The position numbers and the translations under genes were made by a program. The notes under the pieces were generated by a model, which did no database searches, was not told the DNA's origin, and worked only from the letters and a program-made list of their open reading frames with translations. A stretch of 64,000 bases of DNA from SAR116 cluster bacterium AG-426-B08. GTDB lineage: Bacteria; Pseudomonadota; Alphaproteobacteria; Puniceispirillales; Marisalimonadaceae. Location: the NCBI GenBank assembly GCA_003213175.1, contig QCNN01000004.1, forward strand, positions 3,186-67,185, read 5' to 3'. This document shows, piece after piece, positions 1,378 through 29,044 of the stretch. Position 1 is the stretch's first letter. The number at the start of each line of letters is the position of its first letter.

Positions 1378-3510
1378 ATGAAACTCAAAACCTCAAATTC
1401 TGAGGTTAGATTGTCTTTAAATAAAATCACAAAAAAATTAATTAATAATCAAAATGACAGGTATTTTGACAGAGAAATTAGCTGGTTATCTTTTAATGAA
1501 AGAGTTTTACTACAAGCATATGATAAGACAATTCCTTATGGTGAAAGACTTAGATTTGTAACAATTTCTTCAGAAAATTTAGATGAATTTTATATGGTTC
1601 GAATAGCTGGGCTACATCAGCTTATAAGTCAAGGTTTCAATACAGTTCCTGAAACTGGAATGAGGGCAGATGAATTATTAAATAAGGTACTTAATGCTTC
1701 CAAAGATTTAAAAAATAAACAGCAAAGATGTTTGAATTATTTATTGAATGAAAAGGAAGATTGTGATGTTTCAATTTTGTTTGATAATAAATGGACTAAA
1801 AATGAATTAGAATGGCTTAAAGAATATTATAAACAAAATATTCTACCTCTTTTAACTCCAACCACGTTAGATCCTGCACACCCTTTTCCTTTTATCCAAA
1901 ATAAAGGCAAATGTGTATTAATGGAGATGAAAGATACAAAAAACAAAAATATAAATTGTGTTGTTTTACTTCCTGATAATATAGCTAGATTTATAAGATT
2001 ACCTGGTGAAAATCAGAGATATGCTATGCTGGAGACCTTAGTTACAAAGTTTGTTCATTTAATTTATCCTGAATATAAATTATTAAAATCAGGCATGTTT
2101 AGAGTTATCAGAGATGCCGAAATTGAAATAGATGATGAAGCAGATGACTTAATAGGGCAATTTGAAACTGCAATTAAAGCCAGAAAAAGAGGTGGTATTG
2201 TATCTTTAACCTTTTCTCATGATTTATCTAAATCTGCTCAAAAACTTTTAACTAGGGAATTAAATATCCCTGACGATCATATATATGTTGCGCAAGGATT
2301 TGTTGGGATCAATGACTTTACTGAAATAATAAATAATTTACCCAAACAAAATATATTCAAACCTTACAAACCCAGAATGCCACAAAGAATATTAGACTTT
2401 AAAGGAGATTGCTTTTCGGCGATAAAAAATAAAGAAATAATTGTTCATCATCCTTACGAAAGTTTTGATGTAGTTTTAAGTTTGCTTCAACAGGCAGCAA
2501 CAGATAAAAATGTTTTAACAATAAGGCAAACTTTATATAGAACAACACCTGATTCACCAATAGTAGAAGCTTTGGTGTCCGCTGCTGAGTCAGGAAAATC
2601 TGTTATTGCAGTAATTGAGCTGAAAGCTCGATTTGATGAAGAAAATAATGTCCAACTAGCTAGAGTATTAGAACAAGCTGGTGCACAAGTTGCTTACGGC
2701 CTAGTTGATTTAAAAGTACATGCAAAATTATCTTTAATAACAAGAAAAGAGGGTAAAAAATTAGTTTCTTATGCTCATTGTGGAACTGGTAATTATCATC
2801 CACATACTGCTAAAATTTATACTGACTTTTCGTTATTCACTATCGATAAAAATATTTGTGATGATGCTAGATCAGTCTTTAATTTTCTTACCAGTCACGT
2901 TCAGCCAAAACGATTAAATAAGATGATCATTTCACCCAACTCTTCTTATGATTGGTTAATTGAGAAAATTGATAATGAAATACAAAATGCTAAAGATGGT
3001 TTTGAAAGTGGAATTTGGATTAAATGTAATGCGATTGTAGACCAAAAAATAATTGAAAAATTCTATGAAGCATCCAATGCAGGGGTTAGAATTCACTTGA
3101 TGGTTAGGGGTATTTGTTGCTTACGCCCTAATGTTAAAGGAATGTCTGAAAACATTACAGTAAATGCAATTATAGGAAGATTTCTTGAACATGGAAGAAT
3201 ATATGTTTTTGCAAATAAAGGAAAATTTCAGTCTGAAAGTAATTTAGTATATATAGCATCTGCTGATATAATGCCTCGTAATTTATACCATAGAGTTGAG
3301 GCTTTTATACCTCTAGAAAACAAAACAGTTCGAAGTCAAGTCCTAGACCAAGTATTACCGGCTCTAATAAACGACACAAAAAATACTTGGCAATTAAATA
3401 AAAATGGAGAATACTCCAAAAAACAAAATAAGGACAAAACATTTTGTGCGCACACTTATTTTATGAAAAACCCAAGTTTATCAGGTCAGGGAAGCTTAGC
3501 TAAAATATAA
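1378..3510 (+). CDS. ppk: Polyphosphate kinase 1
   Basis: 710 aa. It has the N-terminal FDREISWLSFNERVL motif, KVHAKLSL (autophosphorylated His region) and RFLEHGRIY in the C-terminal PLD-like domains. A 2-nt gap separates it from ppx. Confidence 0.95.
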   Translation: MKLKTSNSEVRLSLNKITKKLINNQNDRYFDREISWLSFNERVLLQAYDKTIPYGERLRFVTISSENLDEFYMVRIAGLHQLISQGFNTVPETGMRADELLNKVLNASKDLKNKQQRCLNYLLNEKEDCDVSILFDNKWTKNELEWLKEYYKQNILPLLTPTTLDPAHPFPFIQNKGKCVLMEMKDTKNKNINCVVLLPDNIARFIRLPGENQRYAMLETLVTKFVHLIYPEYKLLKSGMFRVIRDAEIEIDDEADDLIGQFETAIKARKRGGIVSLTFSHDLSKSAQKLLTRELNIPDDHIYVAQGFVGINDFTEIINNLPKQNIFKPYKPRMPQRILDFKGDCFSAIKNKEIIVHHPYESFDVVLSLLQQAATDKNVLTIRQTLYRTTPDSPIVEALVSAAESGKSVIAVIELKARFDEENNVQLARVLEQAGAQVAYGLVDLKVHAKLSLITRKEGKKLVSYAHCGTGNYHPHTAKIYTDFSLFTIDKNICDDARSVFNFLTSHVQPKRLNKMIISPNSSYDWLIEKIDNEIQNAKDGFESGIWIKCNAIVDQKIIEKFYEASNAGVRIHLMVRGICCLRPNVKGMSENITVNAIIGRFLEHGRIYVFANKGKFQSESNLVYIASADIMPRNLYHRVEAFIPLENKTVRSQVLDQVLPALINDTKNTWQLNKNGEYSKKQNKDKTFCAHTYFMKNPSLSGQGSLAKI

Positions 3511-3512
3511 AT

Positions 3513-4970
3513 ATGAATGAAGTAGCTTTAAGTTTTTATAGGAAGATAAATAAAGGTAAATTAGCAATAATCGATATTGGTTCTAATTCTATTAGACTTG
3601 TTATATATCCTCAAAATGGTAAATACCCTTTTCCGTTATTTAATGAAAGAATAAATTGTAAACTCGGTGAGGGTTTATCATTGAGTAAAAATATTTCAAG
3701 TCAATCAATTTCAAAAGCTTTGTCAGCTATAAAGCGTTTTGCATATATAATAAAAACTATGTCTGTGAAACATCAATTAATTATAGCAACTGCAGCTGTT
3801 AGAAAAGCCAAAAATGCAAAAGAATTTTTACGTCCTGCAGAAAAACTTCTTAATCATAATATTAAAATTCTGTCTGCTAAAGAGGAGGCTGATTACGCCT
3901 CTTTAGGAGTTCTTAGCAACATAAAAGTTGATAAAGGGCTTATAGCAGATTTAGGAGGAGGAAGTTTAGAACTTATTCTTATTCAAGATGGAAAAAAGAT
4001 AAAATCAACGAGTATCGATATTGGACACTTATCTCAGATTAGTAGTGAAGAAATCAGAAAAGAAATTAATAAAGTTGAATGGCTGAATAAATCTAAAGGT
4101 CTTACATTGTATGGAACAGGTGGAAGTTTTAGAGCTCTAGGATCTGCCTATATAAAGAATTATAATTATCCACTCTCATTATTGCATGGATTAAAATTCG
4201 ATATCGAAAGAGGGATAATCCTTTTGGATCAAATGTCAGACGAAAACAAAGAAGTATTAGGTATACCTCCTGGTAGAACAGATACTATTTCAACTGCAGC
4301 AAACATAATAACTCACCTGATTTTATCATCAAATGTAAAAAATATTATGATTAGTGGAACAAGTATAAGAGATGGATTGATAGCAGAATTAAATAAAGAA
4401 AATAGGATCAATCCAGATAAAGTTGCTTACTATAATGTACTTGCAAAAAACCAAAGATTTAATGGTATGCAAACTAAAATAAAAAAAATATTCAGTCCTA
4501 TTGTTCAAAAAATTGCAGATAAAGATCTTGAAAGGGTATTTAAAATTAGTACTAATCTTTCAGATATTTCTTGGGACGAACAGCCAGATATGAGAGGTAA
4601 TATTGCCGCAAACAAAATCTTATCACTACCAGTAAGAGATTTAACTCATATTGAGAGGGTATGGATGGCCAAAGTTGTTTATCACAGATATGTTGGTACT
4701 AAAGATAAACAACAAATTGATAAAAGAATAATCAATTTACTTTCAGAAAAACAAAAAATTTCATCTTATGCTATAGGTTTAGGATTAAGATTTTTATATA
4801 ATTTTAGCGCAGGATTACCAAAAAATTTGGATAATATTAAATTCAAGATTAAGAAAAATAAACTGACTTGTAAAATAAAACCTGAAGCCAAAGCTCTCAT
4901 GGATAAAGAAAACGAACGAAGATTAAAAAACTTTTCTAATGCGTGTAATTTAAATTATGAGATTATTTGA
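3513..4970 (+). CDS. ppx: Exopolyphosphatase (Ppx/GppA family)
   Basis: 485 aa. ASKHA-fold motifs IIDIGSNSIRLVIY and DLGGGSLEL are present. It lies immediately downstream of ppk. Confidence 0.9.
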   Translation: MNEVALSFYRKINKGKLAIIDIGSNSIRLVIYPQNGKYPFPLFNERINCKLGEGLSLSKNISSQSISKALSAIKRFAYIIKTMSVKHQLIIATAAVRKAKNAKEFLRPAEKLLNHNIKILSAKEEADYASLGVLSNIKVDKGLIADLGGGSLELILIQDGKKIKSTSIDIGHLSQISSEEIRKEINKVEWLNKSKGLTLYGTGGSFRALGSAYIKNYNYPLSLLHGLKFDIERGIILLDQMSDENKEVLGIPPGRTDTISTAANIITHLILSSNVKNIMISGTSIRDGLIAELNKENRINPDKVAYYNVLAKNQRFNGMQTKIKKIFSPIVQKIADKDLERVFKISTNLSDISWDEQPDMRGNIAANKILSLPVRDLTHIERVWMAKVVYHRYVGTKDKQQIDKRIINLLSEKQKISSYAIGLGLRFLYNFSAGLPKNLDNIKFKIKKNKLTCKIKPEAKALMDKENERRLKNFSNACNLNYEII

Positions 4971-5104
4971 TCATTTAATTGACGAAACATAATTAATACA
5001 TGCTTTTGAATTTTTCTAAAAAGAATAAAATAAAAAAAATTATATTAAATTTACAATTTATTAATAAATAAGATTACGCTGTAGTATAATTAGTAATTTT
5101 AAGT

Positions 5105-6151
5105 CTATTTGAAATATTTTTCTTTAAATTTTAAAGCAACTGAAACTAGTAATATTAGTATAGGCACTTCAACAAGAGGACCAATAACAGTTGCGAAAGC
5201 CTCTTTTGATGCAAGGCCAAAAGTGGCAATTGAAACTGCAATAGCCAATTCAAAATTATTTGAAGCTGCTGTGAATGATAAAGAAGTAGCCTTTGGATAA
5301 TTAATATTGGCAAACCTACTGATACTAAAACTAATAAAAAACATAATTAGAAAATATATGACAAGAGGAATTGATATTGTTAAAACATCCAAAGGAAGTT
5401 TCAAAATTTCATTACCTTTTAGAGTAAACATAACAATTATTGTAAATAACAGAGCAATTAAAGTTATAGGACTTATTCGTGGAAGAAACTTGTTCTCGTA
5501 CCATTCTTCGCCATATTTCTTAACTAATAATGATCTTGTTACAAAACCTGCTAAAAATGGAATACCAAGATAAACTAGAACTATTTTAGCAATGTAAAAT
5601 ATTGAAATATCAATAATTTGACCGTCATATCCAAAAATTTCAGGCAAAATTTTTAAAAAAAACCATGCATAAGGCGCAAAGAAGATAATTTGAAAAATTG
5701 AATTAAATGCAACCAATCCTGCTACATATTCTGAACTTCCTCTAGCCAACTCATTCCAAACAAGAACCATTGCTATACATCTAGCTAAACCAATTAGTAT
5801 GACGCCAGTCATGTATTCAGGTTTATCAGAAAGAAAAGTAATAGCTAAAAAAAACATTAATGCAGGGCCTACTATCCAATTTTGAAATAAAGACAAAGCT
5901 AAGACTTTCTTATCTTTAAAAACTTCAATTATTTTTTCATATTTAACTTTTGCTAAAGGTGGATACATCATTAAAATAAGCCCTATTGCAATAGGAATAT
6001 TTGTATTACTGTAAGTTATTGAATCAAGAAATTTAGGCATATTTAGAAAAACATTACCAATAACTATACCTATAATCATTGCAAGAAATATCCATATAGT
6101 TAGGTATTTATCTAAAAATGATAGATTTAATTTTTCATATTTTCGTTTCAT
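5105..6151 (-). CDS. acr3: ACR3-family arsenite efflux permease
   Basis: 348 aa polytopic membrane protein. It has [22 protein letters not shown], and [16 protein letters not shown] containing the conserved ACR3 Cys. It starts 7 nt downstream of phnM on the same strand. Confidence 0.85.
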
Positions 6152-6158
6152 CTTTTAT

Positions 6159-7304
6159 TTAAGCAACTTCTCGACCACTTGCCCATACTTTTCTAATGAT
6201 TGGCAAATCATTCTTAATACTTAATCTAACCAAATCTGCTTTTAAACCTTCTTTGATTAAACCCCTATCATTTAACCCTGTAGCCTTACAAGGGTTTGTA
6301 GTTACTGCAGCTATACTTTTGGGTAAATTGTTAGATTTTATACCCCACATTATTGCTGCCATCATCAATGATGAAGGCACATAATCAGAACTTAAAATAT
6401 CAAGAAGGTCTTTATCAATAAGTGATTGAGCTGAAACATTACCTGAATGAGATCCTCCTCTTACTAAATTTGGTGCTCCCATTATTATTTTTATGTTACT
6501 GCTTTTACACTTTGTTGCAGCTTCAAGAGTGGTTGGAAACTCAGCTAAATTTATACCTTGTGAACAACTCTCTTCCACATCAGAAATTGTAGTATCATCA
6601 TGACTAGCCAATACTGCATTTAATCTTTTACTAAATTTTATTGTTTCACTTTTATGTTTTTTACCAAACATTTTTTGAAGATCTTTTAAGTATGAAAAGT
6701 GTCTTTCAATTTGTGATTCTGAAAGAGCAAATTTTCCTGATAAATAAACTTTGAACTGTGAAACATCACGAAACTGTCTTTGGCCTGGTGTGTGATCCAT
6801 AAGACTAACGATTTTTACCTTATCTTGAGCATTGAATTCTTCTAACTCCTGAATTAAATTTTCTGAACATATTTCAGCTCTTAGATGAATAAAATGTTCA
6901 ATCTTAAAAGATTTGTCTTTTGATAAGTTATTGATAGAGGTGGCTGTTTCTCTTGCATATTTGTCATATCTATGCACACCATCTCTGTTAATAGATCCTA
7001 CTCTTAAAGCATCAAAAACAGTTGTAATGCCTGCAGATGCTAATTCTCCATCGTGAGCTGTAAGAGCATTATTTATAGGCCAATTTACACCAGGTCTTGG
7101 TTTGAGATGCCTTTCTAAATTATCTGTGTGTAGTTCAACTAAACCTGGAATTAAATAATCTTCATTGCAATCTATAGATCTAGGTATAGAGCTTTTTCCT
7201 TTATTGACCCTTTTAATAAACCCATCTTTTAATTGAATACTTCCCAAAAAGACTTCGTCTTCAGTTACAATATTAACATTATTTAAAATGACATCAGACA
7301 ACAT
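6159..7304 (-). CDS. phnM: PhnM, alpha-D-ribose 1-methylphosphonate 5-triphosphate diphosphatase (amidohydrolase fold)
   Basis: 381 aa. Motifs: PGLVELHTDNLERHLKPRPGVNWP, SHDDTT, GAPNLVRGGSHSGNVSA and SSDYVPSSL, all typical of PhnM. Confidence 0.9.
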   Translation of the reverse strand: MLSDVILNNVNIVTEDEVFLGSIQLKDGFIKRVNKGKSSIPRSIDCNEDYLIPGLVELHTDNLERHLKPRPGVNWPINNALTAHDGELASAGITTVFDALRVGSINRDGVHRYDKYARETATSINNLSKDKSFKIEHFIHLRAEICSENLIQELEEFNAQDKVKIVSLMDHTPGQRQFRDVSQFKVYLSGKFALSESQIERHFSYLKDLQKMFGKKHKSETIKFSKRLNAVLASHDDTTISDVEESCSQGINLAEFPTTLEAATKCKSSNIKIIMGAPNLVRGGSHSGNVSAQSLIDKDLLDILSSDYVPSSLMMAAIMWGIKSNNLPKSIAAVTTNPCKATGLNDRGLIKEGLKADLVRLSIKNDLPIIRKVWASGREVA

Positions 7305-7405
7305 GAAATCCTTAAATATCCATATATATGACTCTAATATTACAGTTTTTTTAAAAGTTAAAATATATTAATTAAATTGAAACAAAACTATAATATGTAA
7401 ATCTC

Positions 7406-8113
7406 ATGGAAGAATATTATAAAAGATATGCAATATATTATGCACCTTTAGAAAATTCAGAGCTAGATGTGTTTGGTAAATGTTGGTTAGGATGGGATCC
7501 TTATAAAGGTTTAGAAACTACTAAGTCAGATCTTTCAAGTTCACCCAATTTACAGAAATTTTCTAGATTTGTATTTGCACCAAAACAATATGGATTTCAT
7601 GGCACAATAAAAGCTCCATTTAGATTAAAGGATGGGTATACCTATAATGATCTTGAAAATAAAGTTTGTGAAATATCAAAACAAATACATAGTTTTCATT
7701 TAGACGAACTAATTATTAAAAAATTAGGTAATTTCATTGCATTAATTCCTACTAATAATCTCAAAGTAAATGAAGTATCTAATAAATTTGTAGAGGGATT
7801 AGATTATTTAAGAGATGAGCTTTCTGAAGATGAATTAAAAAAAAGAAATCCTGAAAAATTAACCCCAAATCAAAAAAAAATGCTCTATAAGTGGGGTTAT
7901 CCTTACGTATTTAATGAATTCAAATTTCACTTAACTCTTACCAGTAAATTAAATATTGAGGAAATTGATGGCGTGTTTAAATCTCTTCAAAACATTTTAA
8001 AACAAGTTAATTTAAGTAAGATAAACTTTAATAATATTTGTATTTTTGGACAAAAGAGTGATGAAAAATTTTATTTTATTAAAAGATTTAAATTTAATAA
8101 TTTAAAGCATTAA
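7406..8113 (+). CDS. DUF1045-type phosphonate-metabolism protein (2H phosphoesterase fold)
   Basis: 235 aa with two H-x-T motifs (FHGTIKAPF and FHLTLTS), diagnostic of 2H phosphoesterases. The family is typically found in phn clusters that lack phnP. It is antisense to its neighbours, and its 3' end overlaps phnN by 20 nt. Confidence 0.8.
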   Translation: MEEYYKRYAIYYAPLENSELDVFGKCWLGWDPYKGLETTKSDLSSSPNLQKFSRFVFAPKQYGFHGTIKAPFRLKDGYTYNDLENKVCEISKQIHSFHLDELIIKKLGNFIALIPTNNLKVNEVSNKFVEGLDYLRDELSEDELKKRNPEKLTPNQKKMLYKWGYPYVFNEFKFHLTLTSKLNIEEIDGVFKSLQNILKQVNLSKINFNNICIFGQKSDEKFYFIKRFKFNNLKH

Positions 8114-19579: not shown

Positions 19580-20539
19580 TTAGCCTTTTTTCTTCTTGGC
19601 TTCTAATTTTGCTTTTCTAGCTTTTACGATCACTTCATAGAAACTATGATCAACTGGAACCCAAGCTTTTACAATACCATTTGCAACATCTTCACTGCAT
19701 TTTGGATCATTTTTGTGTATCCATTGCTTCATTCCAACCATAACGTCTCTAGCTTCTTGTGGTAATTTCTTTGGCATTACAATTGGGCCATTAGGAATTA
19801 ACTTTGATGACCAAACCTGAACAAGGTCATCCATATTTAAGATACCTTTATCAACCATTTTTCTTAAATTACCAGATGAGTATCCTTCTTCCCATTTACC
19901 AACACCAGATACCCATGTAACACCTGCATCAACGTCACCATTTAGCACAGCTAATACGTTGTTTTCATGACCACCAGAAAATTGTGTCTTTGAGAAGTAA
20001 GTATCAATATTAACGTTATATAATTCTGGTAATTCAATAGATGGAATTAGATATCCAGAAGTAGAATTAGGATCAGCAAAACCTAATTTTTTTCCTTTAA
20101 GGTCATCTAGGGATTTTATACCAGAATCTTTTCTCGCTACCATTACAGAATAATAACCAGTGTCACCAGTAGGTTGCATTCTAGTTAATATAGGTACAAC
20201 CGCATTAGGGTCTTGTAGATAAATTCCAGCATAACCAGAAGAACCAAACCAAGTGTAATCAAGGTTACCACCAAGCATTGATTCCATGGTTCCAGCATAA
20301 TCCTTAAAGGTAAACATTTTAGCTGGGACATTATATGCTTTTTCAACATAATCTTTTAGGCATCCATTTCGTGCAATGATATCCTGGGATGCTTCATCTC
20401 CAAGAAATCCAATTCTGAATTCAGGCTGAAACTTACTAAGATCCATTTTGGGTCCATCATATTTTTTGTCTGCATTAGCTGCAGAAACCATTAAGAAAGC
20501 GGTCAGTACAGCTAAAAAACTATATAATTTTTTTAACAT
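19580..20539 (-). CDS. phnD: PhnD periplasmic phosphonate-binding protein
   Basis: 319 aa with a signal peptide. It has the typical PhnD segments (FRIGFLGDE, YYSVMVARKDSGIKSLDDLKGKKLGFADPNSTSGYL). Confidence 0.9.
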   Translation of the reverse strand: MLKKLYSFLAVLTAFLMVSAANADKKYDGPKMDLSKFQPEFRIGFLGDEASQDIIARNGCLKDYVEKAYNVPAKMFTFKDYAGTMESMLGGNLDYTWFGSSGYAGIYLQDPNAVVPILTRMQPTGDTGYYSVMVARKDSGIKSLDDLKGKKLGFADPNSTSGYLIPSIELPELYNVNIDTYFSKTQFSGGHENNVLAVLNGDVDAGVTWVSGVGKWEEGYSSGNLRKMVDKGILNMDDLVQVWSSKLIPNGPIVMPKKLPQEARDVMVGMKQWIHKNDPKCSEDVANGIVKAWVPVDHSFYEVIVKARKAKLEAKKKKG

Positions 20540-20586
20540 TTATATTTCTCCATTAATTAAAGTTTAGTCCTCTATTTTTCATAAGT

Positions 20587-21396
20587 TTATGCAGTCTTCT
20601 TAAAATCTGCACTCTCCAATGAAACTGATGTCATAGTGCCTTCAAAAGCTTCGTCGGCTTCAGCACCATAAATTTCTCTGGCCTTCTGATTTGTTAGTTT
20701 TGATGGCAAATCATCAAAGACTATTTCTCCGTTCTGCATACCAATAATACGATCACAATACTGCTTTGCAGTATCAAGAGTATGTAGGTTACAAATCACA
20801 GTGATATTTTGTTCATCGTGAATTTTTCTAAGCGATTCCATAACAAGTCTGGCATTTAGAGGATCCAATGATGCTATAGGTTCATCTGCAAGGATTAGTT
20901 TAGGGTCTTGCATCATAGCTCTACATATTGCAACTCTCTGTTGCTGACCACCAGAGAGAGTTTCAGCTCTTTGTAGAGCTGTTTGCATCATACCAAATTT
21001 ATTTAATAAGTTTAGTGCTGCATGTCTTTCTTCTGATGTAAAAAGTTTTAAACTAGCACGCACAGTAGACATTTCATTTAACTTGCCTAGCATCACGTTT
21101 GTTAGCACATCCAACCTTGGAACAAGATTAAACTGTTGAAATATCATGGCACAATTTTTTTGCCATTCGAGTTTATCCTTTTTCTTAAAATCTAATATAT
21201 TTTGATTTTGGAAAAGAATTTCACCTGAGGTGGCATCAGTTAGTCTATTTATTGTTCTTAATAATGTAGATTTACCTGCACCTGATCTTCCAATAATTCC
21301 AATCATTGAGGAATTTTCAACATTTATTGAAACATTATTAACGGCTTTAACTTGATCAAAATATTTTGAAATATTAATTATTTTAAGCATAAACAA
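20587..21396 (-). CDS. phnC: PhnC phosphonate ABC transporter ATP-binding protein
   Basis: 269 aa with Walker A GRSGAGKST, signature LSGGQQQRVAI and Walker B ILADEP. It is the first gene of phnCDEE. Confidence 0.9.
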   Translation of the reverse strand: MFMLKIINISKYFDQVKAVNNVSINVENSSMIGIIGRSGAGKSTLLRTINRLTDATSGEILFQNQNILDFKKKDKLEWQKNCAMIFQQFNLVPRLDVLTNVMLGKLNEMSTVRASLKLFTSEERHAALNLLNKFGMMQTALQRAETLSGGQQQRVAICRAMMQDPKLILADEPIASLDPLNARLVMESLRKIHDEQNITVICNLHTLDTAKQYCDRIIGMQNGEIVFDDLPSKLTNQKAREIYGAEADEAFEGTMTSVSLESADFKKTA

Positions 21397-21586: not shown

Positions 21587-22159
21587 TTAATTTTTCCAAT
21601 TTAAAACAAAGTTTTTTTGTTCATCTGTATCAATTGATCCTGGTCGATATTTTCTTATATATTGAACAGCATCTTTTGTGGATATTCCTAATTTAGCCAA
21701 TAATAATGATGCGATTGTACCGGTTCTACCTAATCCTGCCTTGCAATGTATTATAATATTTTTTTCTTCTTTTAAAAATCTTTCTAAATCTGAGAGAAGT
21801 AAATTTAACTTCAATAGTGAATTTTTGGTAGGTATATTAAAGTCAATGATTGGAAAATGAAACCAAACGAAATTATTTAATTTAATTTCCTTTATTAAAT
21901 TATCACATCCAAGTGATTTTAATTCTGATATTTCTAAAAGTGATACAATAATATCAATGTGATGATTTTTTAAAATTTTTAGTGTGTTCTCAATTCTAAT
22001 CTTTTGGTTATTAGAGTCTAATAGGGTACCAGGACAACCACATAACCCTAATTTTCCAAAATTTTGAGAATAATGAAATTTGCTAAAATAAATATCTTTT
22101 AATGGTATCCATGTAATTAGATCATCTTTTTGTAATTCATATGTTAAATTAACTACCAT
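21587..22159 (-). CDS. Cys-based (dual-specificity/PTP-like) phosphatase
   Basis: 190 aa with the catalytic loop HCKAGLGRTGT (C-x5-R). No signal peptide. Confidence 0.75.
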   Translation of the reverse strand: MVVNLTYELQKDDLITWIPLKDIYFSKFHYSQNFGKLGLCGCPGTLLDSNNQKIRIENTLKILKNHHIDIIVSLLEISELKSLGCDNLIKEIKLNNFVWFHFPIIDFNIPTKNSLLKLNLLLSDLERFLKEEKNIIIHCKAGLGRTGTIASLLLAKLGISTKDAVQYIRKYRPGSIDTDEQKNFVLNWKN

Positions 22160-22382
22160 AAAATTAAGTATACAGTTATTGATTACAAAAATATTAAGCT
22201 CAATATTACTGAACGGACTCTATTTGCAATCTTATATTGTTTTCTTTTCTTAAAGGAAAAGCTTAATTTTACTAAGTGTCTCCTAATACTCAGATTGTTT
22301 GTAGGAGTATTAATATTGAGATTAGGTTAATCATTTCAAACATGGTATCATAAATTCTTGCTGAAATCAGAAAGTGCTAGTA

Positions 22383-22582
22383 TTGGGCATCACATATAAC
22401 CCAAATGAAATTGCCATTGTAGTTGCTTTTACCTTTTTAATTGCTGGCATTATAAGATGAATTAAGGTATTGGTCTTTCAACTACGGTTATAACCATCAT
22501 GACATTTTTTGTTTCACCGTTGCTAGCTTTAGGATTAAATTTAGTGCCAACGACTGTGGCAAATATTTGGCAATTTAGTTAG
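22383..22582 (+). pseudogene. Remnant of the N-terminus of a TauE/SafE (DUF81)-type permease gene
   Basis: ...LGITYNPNEIAIVVAFTFLIAGIIR is stopped by TGA at 22458-22460. It then continues in another frame as GIGLSTTVITIMTFFVSPLLALGLNLVPTTVANIWQFS and ends at TAG 22580-22582. The sequence resembles the first two TM helices of DUF81 permeases, but the rest of the gene is absent. Confidence 0.35.
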
Positions 22583-22665
22583 TCTGATAACCCTAAGAAA
22601 ATAATAATTAAATATTTTTATTTAATTCTTACAAATTATTTAGAATTTTTTTTCAAAATTATGAA

Positions 22666-23139
22666 TTAAGGGTTTTTAAAGAAACTAAGTGCTTCAGAAA
22701 GTACTCTAAAGTTATTTTTTGATAATAAAATAGCGTTTTTAAAGTAGGAGGCTGCAATTTCATTATTCCCTAGCTTCACCTCTAATTTTCCTAAATTTAA
22801 ATTTACAGCTGCTCTTTGACATAGCTCAATGTTCAAGCATTTTAAATAATCAGCCTTTGCATTCTTATAATCACTAATAAAGAAATATGTATTAGCCCTA
22901 TTAATTAAACTCTCTACAAGGTAACTGTTAGGTATATCTTTACTTTTAATATTAATAGAAAGTAGATTTATAACACCTTGGTAATCTTTTAATAGAAACT
23001 TTTCTTTAGCTGCTTCTACATTTTGAACAAAATTAATTTTGTTTAATTTACTAAAATTGTCGTTAGTGGGTAATGCTGCTAAGACTACATAATTAAGACT
23101 AATAAATAAACAGATTGAGAAAATAAATCTAAGAATCAT
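22666..23139 (-). CDS. Secreted TPR-repeat protein
   Basis: 157 aa with a signal peptide (ICLFISLNYVVLAA) and TPR-like repeats (NRANTYFFISDYKNAKADYLKCL; GKLEVKLGNNEIAASYFKNAILL). Confidence 0.65.
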   Translation of the reverse strand: MILRFIFSICLFISLNYVVLAALPTNDNFSKLNKINFVQNVEAAKEKFLLKDYQGVINLLSINIKSKDIPNSYLVESLINRANTYFFISDYKNAKADYLKCLNIELCQRAAVNLNLGKLEVKLGNNEIAASYFKNAILLSKNNFRVLSEALSFFKNP

Positions 23140-23195
23140 GAAGTTATCAAATTTGTTGCAAATATATTACAATAATATTAAATTTTTATGACAAA

Positions 23196-23714
23196 TCAAG
23201 TTTTTAATTTTGATGTAAACATTCTGGGAAAAAAATAATCGACAACTTCCCCGTTTTTAAAAACTGGTGATTTAAAATTATTTTCGGAATATTCTATAAT
23301 AACAACACCACAAGTCACTAAGTTAACAGGTAACTTATTATAACCTTTAGTTGATAATTGATACATTAATGAATTTAAAATAGGATTATGACCTATTACA
23401 ACCACGGTGCTAAATCCAAGCACTTTGGAGGTTAATTTTTTTTTAATCTGATCTATTGATGCATGATATAAATCTTCTTCAATCGATAAAAAATTGTCTT
23501 TATTGTCCCAATTTAAAAATATATTTTCGTAAGTTAGCTGTGCCCTTAACGCTGGAGAGATTAAAAACAAATCTGGTTTATCTATTCTTTTTTTAAGTTC
23601 CTCAGAAATAACTTTACAAGAATTATAACCTCTTTTGTTTAAACCCCTTTGAAGATCGTTTACGTTACCACTCCAATCGGATTTAGCATGACGTATTAAT
23701 ATTAATTTAGACAT
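23196..23714 (-). CDS. Histidine-phosphatase superfamily protein (SixA-like)
   Basis: 172 aa with the N-terminal LILIRHAKSDW (RHG/RHA catalytic motif) and a later GHNP. Its size matches SixA-type phosphohistidine phosphatases. Confidence 0.75.
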   Translation of the reverse strand: MSKLILIRHAKSDWSGNVNDLQRGLNKRGYNSCKVISEELKKRIDKPDLFLISPALRAQLTYENIFLNWDNKDNFLSIEEDLYHASIDQIKKKLTSKVLGFSTVVVIGHNPILNSLMYQLSTKGYNKLPVNLVTCGVVIIEYSENNFKSPVFKNGEVVDYFFPRMFTSKLKT

Positions 23715-23933
23715 TTAACATTAAAATTTTATCATTATTTGAAATGATTAATTATGTAATTTGATTTTTTTATTTTAAGTATTTTTAAATATCAAAAGCA
23801 CATATCAAGCATTCAAATAAATATATATACCTAATAAATAGTACCATAAATATTTTTCTATGAAATTACAATAAATATCAAGCTGATTTCCATAAAGTCA
23901 ATTGTCATTTCAATAATTGAACCCTGGTCCGTG

Positions 23934-24010
23934 TTCCATGGACTACGGTCAATGGGCAGACCACCCACTGACCATTGACCATTGTTGATTAGGAAAAGGG
24001 TGCAGTAACC
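23934..24010 (+). repeat. 77-bp GC-rich direct repeat, copy 1
   Basis: TTCCATGGACTACGGTCAATGGGCAGACCACCCACTGACCATTGACCATTGTTGATTAGGAAAAGGGTGCAGTAACC is identical at 77/77 positions to 26325-26401. It contains a 9-bp stem (23947-23955 with 23972-23980). Confidence 0.95.
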
Positions 24011-24218
24011 TCCCCCACTTTAAAAATTTTTTGGGACAAGATTATAATTTATCTATTTATTGATTGAAATTAAAAACTTACGTATTACTTCATCTGACAT
24101 CCTATCTTCATTACAATTAAATCTTTATAAAAATTTACAATCAATTAAAATTTTATCAAAAGTTCAAAAGTAAGCTTATCATTTGATAAGACTAAATTAA
24201 AATCTTAGGTTAAAATTA

Positions 24219-24761
24219 GTGAAAAAGAACTTAATAAAAATAGCATATTCATTTGCAGAGGAACGCCACTATGGTCAAGTAAGAAAAGGAAATAAAGGTA
24301 TTCCTTATTTTGAACATATTAAAGAGGTTGTAGCACTTGTAAAAATTTCATCAACAAAAAAAAATGATTCGATCATTATAGCATCTTACCTTCACGATGT
24401 TGTTGAAGATCGCAAAGCAACAAGAAAAGAAATTAAAGATTTATTTGGACACGATGTTGTTGAACTAGTTGAAGAAATGACAGATAAACCCTTCTGTTCT
24501 GAAGCCGAAAGAAGATCAAATCAAATAATGGCGGCTAAAATTATGTCAATTGACGCCTCCTTAATTAAACTTGCGGATAAAATATCTAATATAGAGAATT
24601 TATTTCATGACCCGCCTATATCTTGGAGTAAAAAAGAAATAATTGATTATATAAAATGGGGTCAAGAAGTTGTAAACAATTTACCATATAAAGATATGAA
24701 ATTAATGAAACGCTTTGATAAAATTTGTTTTCAACTTAATAAAAAATTATCTAGTAACTAA
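24219..24761 (+). CDS. HD-domain hydrolase of the SpoT/Mesh1 (small alarmone hydrolase) type
   Basis: 180 aa with a GTG start. AEERHYGQVRKGNKGIPYFEHIKEV...YLHDVVEDRKATRKEIKDLFG..VVELVEEMTD is collinear with the (p)ppGpp-hydrolase HD domain of RelA/SpoT homologs. There is no synthetase domain. Confidence 0.75.
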   Translation: MKKNLIKIAYSFAEERHYGQVRKGNKGIPYFEHIKEVVALVKISSTKKNDSIIIASYLHDVVEDRKATRKEIKDLFGHDVVELVEEMTDKPFCSEAERRSNQIMAAKIMSIDASLIKLADKISNIENLFHDPPISWSKKEIIDYIKWGQEVVNNLPYKDMKLMKRFDKICFQLNKKLSSN

Positions 24762-24835
24762 AACAGCTTTAAAATAAAGAACGTAATATTTTTTTAATAT
24801 TTGTTAAGTATATTATGCTTAAGGAAGGAGTTTAT

Positions 24836-25095
24836 ATGCTTTTTCATCTTAAATATACGCATAGTGCAGAGAGTTATTTAAAAATAATAAAGAAACAAGT
24901 GAGATTTTTAAAAATCGTCTTCGTAAAGCAAATGAGTATGGAGTAACAATTAAATTCAATGTTGGTAACTCACTCGAACATGCAATTTTTATGCTTATAG
25001 AAACTGATACTGCTGAGGGTGTTCATGAATGGCTGGACCCTATAGTTGATTTAGGCCATATCGAACTTACGTCAGTAATTGAAAAGAAGCTTTGA
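24836..25095 (+). pseudogene. Frameshifted small (~86 aa) alpha+beta protein gene
   Basis: A strong SD (AAGGAAGGAG) lies 5 nt before the ATG at 24836. MLFHLKYTHSAES... runs into a stop. A second frame, open from 24865, reads CRELFKNNKETSEIFKNRLRKANEYGVTIKFNVGNSLEHAIFMLIETDTAEGVHEWLDPIVDLGHIELTSVIEKKL and stops at 25093-25095. The frame change lies near 24858-24866. Confidence 0.6.
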
Positions 25096-25227
25096 TAGAA
25101 ATAAAAATAATATATCTTATTCACCAAGAAAAATGGTAGATCTACTTTAAACTTTACACAACTTAACCATTGCTAAATAATTGGCAGATTACCTTTTAAA
25201 AGTATATTGTTTAAATAAAAGAAAATT

Positions 25228-26268
25228 ATGAAAGCTCTAATTTTAAAATATATAAACATAGAAAATTTTAATTTTAAATCAGTTTGGACTATAGTTTTGT
25301 TATTACCATTATTGGTATTTATCTTTATTCCAGATGATTTTAGCTCAATTATTACTTTTGCATCGAAAGCTTTGATGGGGACTATCCCTTTTATATTATT
25401 TGCAGTTAGTTTGGTAGCCTATTTAAAAGCAAGTGGTGCTGAAAGTTTAGTATCAAAAGCATTTAAAGGTAAAGAAATAAAAACTATTTTTATTGCAACT
25501 CTTGTTGGTGGACTTGCTCCCTTCTGTTCATGTGAAGTTATCCCATTTATAGCAAGTATGCTTGCTTTGGGTGTCCCACTTTCAGCTGTAATGGCTTTCT
25601 GGTTGTCATCCCCATTAATTGATCCTCCAGCATTATTAATCACTGCAAGTGCATTAAGTTGGGATTATGCAATTGCGAAAACAGTATCAGCTATGGCAAT
25701 TGGATTAATTGGTGGTTTTGGTATTTATATTTTATCAAAATTTGGAATGTTCTCTAATCCACTAAAACAGCTAAATGGATCTGGATGTGGGTCTTGTTGT
25801 GTTACTAAAGACCCTTTTAATCAAAAACTTGAATTAAAATTTTGGAATAATGCTTTAAGAATAAATATCTTCAAAGAAGAATTTAGATCAAACGGATTAT
25901 TTTTATTGAAATGGTTATCTCTGGCTTATCTAATTGAGGCATTAATGGTTCAATACCTTTCAGCACAAGTTATTGGAAATTTTTTGTCTGGTGATGGTTT
26001 GTCTTCAATTATAATAGGTGCGTTTGCTGGGGTGCCAGCTTATTTAAATTCATATGCAGCCCCTGCAATTGTATCTGGACTAATCGAACAAGGATTAAGT
26101 TCTGGAGGTGCTATGGCATTCTTAGTTGGTGGTGCAATAAGTTCAATTCCTGCAATGACAGCCGTTTGGTCTTTAGTTAATCGCTCAACATTTATTGCTT
26201 ATCTTGTATTTGGTTTTGGTGGGGCTATTTTATGTGGAATAGCTTTTCAAATTTATATGAATTTTTAA
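25228..26268 (+). CDS. COG0701/UPF0718 permease (ArsP-like)
   Basis: 346 aa polytopic membrane protein. It has the family-typical GGLAPFCSCEVIPF motif and a Cys-rich central loop (GSGCGSCCV). Confidence 0.75.
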   Translation: MKALILKYINIENFNFKSVWTIVLLLPLLVFIFIPDDFSSIITFASKALMGTIPFILFAVSLVAYLKASGAESLVSKAFKGKEIKTIFIATLVGGLAPFCSCEVIPFIASMLALGVPLSAVMAFWLSSPLIDPPALLITASALSWDYAIAKTVSAMAIGLIGGFGIYILSKFGMFSNPLKQLNGSGCGSCCVTKDPFNQKLELKFWNNALRINIFKEEFRSNGLFLLKWLSLAYLIEALMVQYLSAQVIGNFLSGDGLSSIIIGAFAGVPAYLNSYAAPAIVSGLIEQGLSSGGAMAFLVGGAISSIPAMTAVWSLVNRSTFIAYLVFGFGGAILCGIAFQIYMNF

Positions 26269-26324
26269 CTTCGATCTTTATTTTGCCTGAGATGATAAGA
26301 GATATTGATTAACCTACATAAATA

Positions 26325-26401
26325 TTCCATGGACTACGGTCAATGGGCAGACCACCCACTGACCATTGACCATTGTTGATTAGGAAAAGGGTGCAGTAAC
26401 C
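26325..26401 (+). repeat. 77-bp GC-rich direct repeat, copy 2
   Basis: Identical to 23934-24010. The flanks diverge immediately outside the block (GTG vs ATA on the left, T vs C on the right). Confidence 0.95.
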
Positions 26402-26560
26402 CCGGACCCATGGGCTGTGTCTACTGTAGACAAGGTTGTAGACAAGCTTTTTATCATTGACGGACTCAATGTATTTGCTAAGCTATTGATATTGTTGGAG
26501 TTTAGATAAAACCATTGCTCTGGTTAGGCATCACACCTCATCTCGAGCGCGCCACATTTA
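26402..26560 (+). other. ORF-less GC-rich block of unknown nature (candidate structured RNA or gene relic)
   Basis: No ORF of 60 aa or more in any frame. G+C is visibly far above the neighbourhood. It contains a hairpin TGTCTA-ctg-TAGACA (26418-26432), a tandem TGTAGACAAG at 26425-26434 and 26437-26446, and CTCGAGCGCGCCAC near 26541-26554. Confidence 0.3.
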
Positions 26561-26785
26561 ATTTCACTCTCATATTCAAAAATTGAAATTTAATTTATAA
26601 GTAATTATTGTTATATTTATAGCTTAAAAGTGGGGGTACCCAAATTGATAAAATATTACATAGATAAATAGCTTTATTTTTTATATTGCTCAATCTGTTT
26701 CAAGATAAACATTATTTTTTTGCGTTTCCACTTTTAAAATATATTATATACCTATACTAAAACTAAGTTTGCAATAAAAATTAAA

Positions 26786-28958: not shown

Positions 28959-29044
28959 ATATTAGTATGTAAAATTTTTAGTCATTATATTAGATTAAAT
29001 GTCAATTATACCTGAATTCATTTTACTAACTGGACAATTAAATA

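Follow-up and report, generated by a model that had tools for sequence, protein, structure and literature searches.

How three genes come to lie between two identical copies of a 77-nt sequence is the question raised by a contig of SAR116 cluster bacterium AG-426-B08, analysed here over a 64,000-nt stretch that is called the window and numbered from its first letter. The two copies, at 23934-24010 and 26325-26401, agree at 77 of 77 positions by repeat search and direct string comparison, lie 2391 nt apart start to start, and form one two-copy family in the repeat search. With 38 of 77 positions G or C (49%) they stand well above the 29.9% of the window, and on reading of the sequence identity is lost abruptly at both edges of each copy, all as a first-pass annotation of the letters alone had described. 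The chance expectation for such an identical pair is about 1e-32, and no third copy was found in the 64 kb with a 34-nt core at up to three mismatches or with an nhmmer profile of the whole repeat family. The conserved block, here called R, is in fact longer than 77 nt; in this lineage it begins at 23917, which gives the left copy 16-17 extra nt, and this 17-nt extension accompanies the block into different left contexts in two of the other loci collected (L178 and L182; handles of this type denote collected loci throughout).

The 2,391-bp unit made up of the three-gene cassette and one copy of R is an insertion-deletion polymorphism of a single marine population, with its breakpoints in R. 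Relatives were gathered with the SixA-like protein encoded to the left of the repeat, yielding 35 loci from single-cell genomes and metagenome-assembled genomes titled "SAR116 cluster bacterium" or "Alpha proteobacterium SCGC AAA536", which we take to be of the HIMB59/AEGEAN-169 lineage; metagenome contigs were scanned with a 19-nt degenerate core of R, matched by at least 120 contigs, and the exact SixA and ArsP proteins were looked up in public assemblies to obtain further alleles. The empty site predicted by the first-pass annotation, a single R copy with both outer flanks, exists in two of these loci. L170, a 15.8-kb metagenome contig, carries window 22000-24010 (99.9% identity), a 77/77 R and window 26325-26554 (100%). 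The single-cell genome L166, whose SixA is 100% identical, shows this empty join too, through an R that matches at 74/77 and bears three private substitutions.

The occupied arrangement is likewise found repeatedly. L001 (AG-426-I14) is 99.7% identical to window 22724-26572 with the same order of repeat, cassette and repeat, and this structure was assembled independently at least nine times by different assemblers, among them in the single-cell genome L001 (the same as L173) and the metagenome assemblies L164, L174, L175, L180 and L137; it is therefore not the assembly artefact that the annotation had named as a possible refutation. A census of junctions gives nine loci in which R joins the SixA side to the HD-hydrolase end of the cassette, seven in which it joins the ArsP end to the right-hand module called class b below, two empty sites in which it joins the SixA side to class b directly, and four in which it joins the SixA side to other modules. 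Other left contexts of the cassette are seen in L178, L181 and L182, and other right neighbours in L165, L176, L177, L179, L181 and L182.

R marks more than this one cassette. In L008, L026, L029 and L169 homology to the window runs through SixA up to 24008-24013 and is followed by different DNA in each, so that the right end of the repeat recurs as the junction with a hypervariable region; the single-cell-genome contigs L002, L003 and L027 terminate at R. Genomes with identical or near-identical SixA thus show at least five alternative right neighbours of the SixA-proximal R, namely the HD cassette, class b, class c (L026, L169), class c with a tRNA-Ser gene (L029) and class d (L008). Class d carries a quinone-oxidoreductase/TRAP-transporter cassette, which lies together with an alcohol dehydrogenase gene in the unrelated segment separating the first R of L008 from a second, 80% identical copy 6 kb away.

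Beyond the SixA region R is a dispersed family, and the proposal that the 77-mer is a private attL/attR pair did not survive. BLAST of the 77-mer against the first collected set gave at least 143 copies in at least 116 loci, and in all at least 165 copies reaching the right end were found in at least 130 sequences, 80-99% identical to the window copy and nearly always full length. The many copies of a dispersed repeat, which the annotation had listed as an outcome that would count against it, were thus found; the unrelated loci expected of a generic repeat were not, as all copies stand at cassette boundaries of island-like DNA, near integrases, tRNA genes and tRNA fragments. R is accordingly a recurrent junction for many other cassettes. 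Clustering of the 60 nt to its right yields at least 43 neighbour classes, and clustering of the DNA 60-130 nt to its left at least 83. Many contigs hold 2-5 copies, mostly in direct orientation and 1-9 kb apart; in L076 three direct copies are spaced by 1,153 and 1,366 nt, with one or two genes between them. The right boundary is sharp (...GCAGTAACC) and truncated copies keep it in every case (positions 31-77, 43-77 and 52-77). On the left, about 45 less conserved nt precede the 77-mer in most family members, giving a block of about 93-120 nt.

The left extension often reads ...CAACTCCACCA and in a fuller form ...CCAACTCCACCAACCCA... (for example L132 4840-4884). It contains an NCCA-ended motif, CAACTCC-A-CCA, that could serve as the 3' strand of an acceptor stem, pairing with a G3:U70-type partner in the manner of tRNA-Ala or tmRNA. 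That R arose as the flank of an old tRNA-Ala or tmRNA attachment site is a guess, and stays one because the DNA upstream of R yielded no complete tRNA-Ala or tmRNA at any copy. Inverted copies also occur: L109 has an inverted pair of about 400 bp, formed by two diverged R blocks and their g-like modules pointing towards each other (7348-7422 on the plus and 7680-7755 on the minus strand), and in L032 a methyltransferase gene lies between a full R on the plus strand and a 16-nt R remnant on the minus strand. The quinone-oxidoreductase/TRAP cassette is moreover oriented oppositely relative to tRNA-Arg in L067 and L134. Together these arrangements suggest that island segments also become inverted.

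What stands to the right of R has a recurrent architecture. All recurrent right-neighbour classes are self-contained modules, each with a tandem pair of 10-13-nt repeats of the kind found in attachment-site arms, which by class read TGTAGACAAG, TGTATACCA, TTGTGGGTA, GTGGGACAA, TGTGGGGTA and TTTAAGGT, each present twice. The window has two such modules. To the right of the left R is a degenerate class g module, in which a single arm-type repeat survives (GGGACAAGATT at 24033-24043) ahead of a decayed core resembling the 3' end of tRNA-Ser(TGA) (CATCTGACATCCTA at 24091-24104); the intact form has GTGGGACAA twice and then GGCTGACACCCCATCCGCCA, which equals the 3' end of tRNA-Ser(TGA). Class g repeats also stand directly upstream of the start of a P4-like integrase gene in L140 and L093. 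To the right of the right R is a class b module, with repeats TGTAGACAAG at 26425-26434 and 26437-26446 and a core resembling the 3' end of tRNA-Arg(ACG) (CACCTCATCTCGAGCGCGCCA at 26534-26554). All class b alignments end exactly at ...CACCTC(A/T)TCTCGAGCGC(A/G)CCA, the T-stem, acceptor and CCA end of tRNA-Arg(ACG), and the loci diverge beyond it; in every case this Arg-like core is found 140-155 nt rightward of R, on the same strand. A tRNA-fMet 3' fragment follows R after about 20 nt in L008 and L156, and in L029, L111, L142, L113 and L154 modules abut full tRNA-Ser genes tail to tail. The recognisable integrase target sites, the tRNA-Arg, tRNA-Ser and tRNA-fMet 3'-end-like cores, thus lie outside the repeat, 20-170 nt to its right.

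The position after the Arg-like core is a second hot junction, with at least five different followers in near-identical genomes. Identity between the window and L001 is 99.7% as far as 26572, after which 2.46 kb in the former stand against 586 bp in the latter before similarity resumes at 29036 with 94%. The followers are genes for a coiled-coil protein and Ppnp in the window, a DUF805 gene in L001 (6556-7141), an integrase gene in L166 and L178, and other small genes in L170 (1-446) and L175 (5226 onward).

Neither the window nor the cassette supplies a recombinase; tblastn with integrases and primases found no homologue anywhere in the window, which bears out the earlier statement that none lies in or beside the cassette. 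The window has no tRNA or tmRNA gene by ARAGORN and does not reach gpt, rnpA or yidC. Relatives provide the missing end. In the empty-site genome L166 the single R is followed by the Arg-like core, 45 nt, a 377-aa DUF6538-type integrase gene at 4348-5481, 1.3 kb from R, tRNA-Arg(ACG), gpt, rpmH, rnpA, yidD and yidC, an order from which the island extends from SixA to tRNA-Arg and in its minimal form consists of an integrase and one block. L178 has the cassette, R, the class b module, the integrase gene and tRNA-Arg. The tRNA-Arg(ACG) gene stands beside the island at 4195-4271 in L166 and 4208-4284 in L178, and also in L132, L134, L077 and L065.

Two integrase architectures occur near R by Pfam. 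Tyrosine integrases of the DUF6538+Phage_integrase type are found in L077, L132, L134, L065, L075, L096 and L107, and also in L166 and L178, and in all nine of these loci a unit of R, arm and core adjoins the integrase gene; in L166, L178, L132 and L107 the Arg-like core is followed after 45 nt by the 3' end of that gene. The Arm-DNA-bind_3+Phage_int_M+Phage_integrase type is found in L140, L151 and fragments. Replication genes adjoining R copies encode Prim-Pol/D5_N and AAA_25 proteins, as found by clustering of open reading frames (ORFs) and Pfam. The element of L140 has, all in direct orientation, tRNA-Ser(TGA), GTGGGACAA repeats, the integrase gene at 5614-6891, an ORF that we read from its translation as AlpA-like, R, repeats of the GTGGGACA type, about 60 nt and a decayed Ser core; by this order R falls directly inside attR and occupies the far end of the arm with the arm-type repeats.

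The tRNA-Arg end of the island is less simple. The DUF6538-type integrase gene sits between inverted repeats of about 63 bp, consisting of the last ~18 nt of tRNA-Arg and 45 nt (AAAAACGTCAGTGGAC.GTGGTTAAGTGTCTGAATTCCTTGAAT), in L166 (4255-5640), L132 (5095-6410), L077 (1960-3275), L134 (5220-6530), L096 (110-1425) and L178; the tRNA-Arg part of one copy is the genuine tRNA gene. The inverted core co-varies with the isoacceptor, reading CGAGCGCACCA beside tRNA-Arg(ACG) and CAGAGCGCACCA beside tRNA-Arg(TCG) in L096. The integrase segment looks like an invertible or palindrome-inserted module, and its order (R, arms, core, 45 nt, integrase, inverted 45 nt, inverted tRNA-Arg) could not be derived from ordinary integration, from tandem accretion or from a single inversion. 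In L080 (1350-1620) tRNA-Arg is followed by a third type of integrase, which has the N-terminus MGCVRKRGKSWNAQV... and two copies of TTGACACAG upstream; in L153 the same integrase comes after the Arg-like core of R and a class b module, so that the core seems equivalent to the tRNA as an integration site.

These observations are best accommodated, with a probability of about 0.65, if R is a conserved part of the arm region of elements that target tRNA genes, and if recombination between R copies, probably homologous, accounts for the cassette polymorphism. R would form the outer edge of an attachment-site arm, followed by the tandem 10-13-nt arm repeats, a spacer and the tRNA-3'-end-like core, and such arms would belong to tyrosine-recombinase elements of a low-G+C marine alphaproteobacterial lineage. 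The blocks of the window may then be relics in an additive genomic island that has the SixA-like gene at one end and tRNA-Arg(ACG) at the other. The left copy and its decayed tRNA-Ser-type arm would be the end of one old element, and the HD/DUF3303/ArsP genes with the right copy and its tRNA-Arg-type arm the cargo end of another. As R copies are long, near-identical direct repeats, recombination between them can remove or insert the unit; it would delete the 2,391 bp, or insert them by way of a circular intermediate. RecA-type homologous recombination or gene conversion across R is favoured as the agent, with the integrases probably acting at the tRNA-like cores, and R presumably has a function in cis in the arm region.

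The breakpoints bear on this choice of agent. Alleles change over at differing positions within R, near 24, near 50 and at the right end. The left R of L182 has about ten differences from the window, confined to its first ~50 nt, and the DNA to the right is 98.9% identical; the right R of L177 and of L182 is homologous to the window copy for the first ~24 nt only; in L178 the right R differs from the left at three internal positions and both flanks match the window. Breakpoints that differ in this way are the pattern expected of homologous exchange, which they fit at least as well as a fixed crossover. Of the site-specific integration first proposed, the bracketed unit of gain and loss and its empty site have stood; a private repeat and a fixed crossover have not, and no recombinase lies in or beside the cassette.

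Several observations weigh against this account. The window pair is the only within-contig pair at 100%, other such pairs being 69-97% identical, and both copies have the rare variant CCCACTG, so that a very recent event or homogenisation by gene conversion is needed. The sharp right edge of R, at which dozens of unrelated modules begin, looks more like a fixed crossover. R is conserved at 80-99% across elements with unrelated arms, cores and integrase families, which is too much for a relic. In L166, L178, L132, L077, L134 and L096 the Arg-like core near R runs opposite to the tRNA-Arg gene, and the two are in direct orientation only in arrangements of the L032, L067 and L153 types; simple tandem integration at tRNA-Arg does not predict an inverted core. 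Among the collected loci no contig with a circular junction (ArsP end, R, HD side) was seen, the apparent one in L179 being an artefact of a contig that starts inside R. Empty-site contigs assembled from short reads could in principle be false joins through a perfect repeat, although this is unlikely to explain all of them because of the private substitutions of L166 and the four other types of neighbour at the same R. Finally, the associations carry ascertainment bias, since the loci were collected through R, SixA or ArsP.

The sharp edge leads to the strongest rival, itself unlikely, in which R is a dedicated site-specific recombination site, an analogue of an attC or shared attB with a fixed point at its right end, where a recombinase acting in trans would insert and excise cassettes of one to three genes. 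The window pair would then be the true attL and attR of a cis-mobilisable cassette, moved for example by the DUF6538-type integrase at the tRNA-Arg end. An invariant right edge facing at least 43 neighbour classes, and kept by every truncated copy, is what such a site would show, as are the exact empty and occupied alleles, the arrays of short cassettes between direct R copies (L076, L109, L075, L111) and the unit of R, arm and core beside the integrase gene in all nine DUF6538-type loci. In L096 (1560-1590) R stops 13 nt short of its right end and passes directly into a sequence like the 3' end of tRNA-Ser (GGTTACTGCACCC joined to TCCGCCA, the junction reading GCACCC/TCCGCCA), possibly the footprint of a site-specific event within R. 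The scatter of breakpoints at different positions inside R speaks against a fixed crossover, however, and R has neither the inverted-repeat architecture of a core site nor attC-like R''/R' motifs. The cores that can be assigned to integrases lie beyond R and consist of tRNA 3' ends, the block occurs with integrases of two unrelated architectures, cargo genes lie in both orientations, and the circular junction is again absent.

A related and more doubtful possibility is a cassette system of a kind not yet described, in which a resident DUF6538-type recombinase would insert, excise and invert cassettes bounded by composite sites of R, arm and core. The gene of this enzyme lies between inverted 63-bp copies that comprise the 3' end of tRNA-Arg and a further 45 nt, and if the reading were true a streamlined oceanic bacterium would sample a shared cassette pool in an integron-like or shufflon-like manner.

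It is improbable that R is primarily a functional RNA or cis-regulatory element, such as a sib-like integrase retroregulator, an outward promoter or a 5' leader, with recombination incidental, although this is not exclusive of the other readings. The sib retroregulator of phage lambda acts on integrase mRNA and is read only when the attachment site is intact; in the DUF6538-type loci R lies about 270 nt past the integrase stop codon on the transcribed strand, across the core, which is the topology of sib. The high conservation of R, independent of integrase family, and the short hairpin GGTCAA...TTGACC retained in almost all copies would also suit a functional element. Yet an alignment of 113 unique copies folds by RNAalifold at only about -2 kcal/mol on either strand, with a helix of 4-7 bp and essentially no compensatory changes, and R as a structured RNA was rejected on these grounds; the single-sequence fold of a 341-nt stretch including flanks has a z-score of -2.8 on the minus and -0.75 on the plus strand. 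No Rfam family matched the window, and none matched the R region at the gathering threshold or at E<=10; at a permissive threshold eight other loci with full-length blocks returned genuine tRNAs only. A consensus scan found no promoter-like or terminator-like site inside R. That the pair is a local segmental duplication or assembly artefact unrelated to mobile DNA, as two identical copies 2.4 kb apart of a kind that short-read assemblers often mishandle and single-cell contigs breaking at R (L002, L003, L027) might suggest, is effectively refuted by at least nine independent assemblies made with different assemblers, by the wide distribution of the R family, and by flanks of the two copies that are unrelated to one another and so unlike the product of a tandem duplication.

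Other identities for R were tried and set aside. It is not protein-coding or the 3' end of a gene: frames of 36-50 codons on the minus and 16-23 codons on the plus strand shift or gain TAA stops, the longest frames at R (30-60 codons) acquire shifts and stops between more than 100 copies, no long ORF covers the block, and entropy per codon position (0.34/0.47/0.27) has no clear periodicity. It is not a tRNA or tmRNA fragment, ARAGORN being negative for the window and equally for the circularised cassette and the joined "empty" sequence. A phage or viral origin found no support, as two IMG/VR scans gave chance matches without extended similarity and INPHARED gave no match to R plus arm; the integrase is only 32% identical to Microcystis phage integrases. 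R is not an integron attC, since on reading of the sequence it has no palindrome, no complementary ends and no RYYYAAC/GTTRRRY motifs, nor a conserved fold, and no dif-like 28-mer of the Xer type was recognisable by eye. No published description of the repeat was found in open-access text, a literature searchable by words and not by sequence.

The features of the locus are collected in the table. The cargo is as first described, on the evidence of Pfam and ORF comparison, and wherever the HD hydrolase gene is present it is linked to the other two genes. The frameshift of the small gene is a 1-nt deletion near 24876 relative to L001. The intact 93-aa form, a weak match to PF11746, is found in L165, L167, L173, L176, L179, L180 and L182, and a truncated 62-aa form recurs in L164, L174, L175 and L178, so that the truncation is a segregating allele and not a sequencing error. 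The exact ArsP_1 protein occurs in 26 blocks of the collection in several differing contexts. In L153 (reverse strand, 1538-3742) the order of the cargo is circularly permuted to ArsP, HD and DUF3303-like, with a gap of 79 nt without an R block between ArsP and HD; a 699-aa gene, R and a class b module follow the cargo. A circular intermediate could have produced this permuted order, as could tandem duplication and subsequent loss.

Table. Features of the SixA-proximal island region, in window coordinates
Feature	Position	Strand	Basis or remarks
SixA-like histidine phosphatase gene	23196..23714	-	Pfam His_Phos_1; conserved chromosomal boundary of the island on the left side
Left boundary-block copy	23917..24010	+	17-nt extension TTGAACCCTGGTCCGTG, then 77-nt repeat 23934-24010
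Degenerate class g arm module	24011..24105	+	Alignment with intact modules in L066, L140, L161, L109
HD-domain hydrolase gene (HD_4, RelA/SpoT-type), cargo	24219..24761	+	Pfam PF13328 at 7e-14, PF01966
DUF3303-like small gene, frameshifted, cargo	24815..25096	+	Comparison with intact 93-aa gene of L001
ArsP_1 predicted permease gene, cargo	25228..26268	+	Pfam PF03773 at 1.8e-36
Right 77-nt repeat copy	26325..26401	+	Without left extension
Class b arm module	26402..26554	+	Conserved over ~150 nt in at least 10 loci
Next variable island segment	26555..29035		348-aa coiled-coil protein, Ppnp, two small genes; starts right after the Arg-like core

The left side of the region is itself variable. 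Directly left of the island, window 19580-21396 carries the phosphonate ABC-transporter genes phnD and phnC and a dual-specificity phosphatase gene. The identical SixA-like protein occurs in 160 collection blocks, and L009-L011, L014 and L025 have a 7-kb insertion between SixA and a TPR gene, which shows that the SixA side varies too. Further contigs and genomes compared at this edge are L163, L168, L171, L172 and L004-L007. Where SixA is 100% identical, the end of a thiolase gene lies 7 nt ahead of the SixA start, homology to the window breaks off at 23724, about 10 nt upstream of that start, and the R block is absent. In more distant genomes the SixA ORF alone is conserved and the DNA on either side is different. 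The start of SixA is thus another recombination boundary.

Ocean bacteria with streamlined genomes, SAR11 and HIMB59 among them, are regarded as almost free of mobile DNA. Here one cassette is caught present and absent in one population of such an oceanic bacterium, with breakpoints in a defined repeat, and the same repeat marks dozens of other cassettes that carry transporters, oxidoreductases and regulators. R consequently offers a sequence handle for counting cassette alleles in metagenomes, for delimiting island modules and for testing the exchange of niche genes. It also raises the questions of why elements with unrelated integrases share a block of 77-120 nt, and of what role the inverted tRNA-like sites play around the integrase gene.

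Among known systems, the flexible islands of HIMB59 are close in setting. Like them, the R island has phosphonate-transporter genes near it, a fixed position and a content that varies between cells, and it belongs to the same lineage if our taxonomic assignment is right. The HIMB59 phosphate and phosphonate islands lack tRNA and insertion-sequence hallmarks, and homologous recombination via flanking core genes has been proposed for them (Molina-Pardines et al. 2023, PMC10734472). The R island differs from those in that tRNA-Arg forms one of its boundaries, some cells have integrases in it, and R-block repeats occur within it.

Integron arrays share with R loci the cassettes of one to three genes between recurring elements of ~60-140 nt, an integrase at one end, cassettes without a recombinase of their own, and occupied and empty alleles. 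R differs from attC in lacking the imperfect palindrome and its RYYYAAC/GTTRRRY motifs and in being conserved in sequence rather than in structure, and the system differs from integrons in having cargo in both orientations, tRNA-targeting integrases of DUF6538 or P4-like type, and tRNA genes and fragments as integral parts. Cis-mobilisable elements (CIMEs) and tandem accretion have reportedly been described at the attachment sites of integrative and conjugative or integrative and mobilisable elements. The R cassette resembles a CIME as a segment without recombination genes between direct, attachment-site-associated repeats, near sites used by the integrases of related elements, that could be mobilised or deleted in trans. 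In CIMEs, however, the flanking repeats are the attachment cores themselves; R is at most a candidate integrase substrate, and no conjugation or mobilisation genes were seen.

The tycheposons and additive islands of Prochlorococcus arise by successive integrations separated by partial tRNAs, with degenerated remnants (Hackl et al., 10.1101/2020.12.28.424599). Shared with these are a streamlined marine host, an island at a fixed site by a full-length tRNA with a tyrosine recombinase beside that tRNA, small metabolic or transport cargo, older material pushed inward, remnants without an integrase, presence and absence among relatives, and Prim-Pol or primase-helicase modules in some elements. Three features of the type are found, namely a tRNA-adjacent island and a tyrosine recombinase (here in relatives) and cargo present or absent at a fixed position; tRNA-Arg-like, tRNA-Ser-like and tRNA-fMet fragments stand at module ends, the Arg-like cores being inverted relative to the tRNA gene in six loci. 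The differences are that the repeats of tycheposons are partial tRNAs, whereas here a non-tRNA block of 77-120 nt recurs across Arg, Ser and fMet sites and differing integrase architectures; that the tRNA-like cores, of 13-21 nt, are short and 20-170 nt distant from R; that the core of the tRNA-Arg class is inverted, with the integrase gene within 63-bp inverted repeats; and that the host lineage is another one. The tycheposon and additive-island model of Prochlorococcus is the closest described system.

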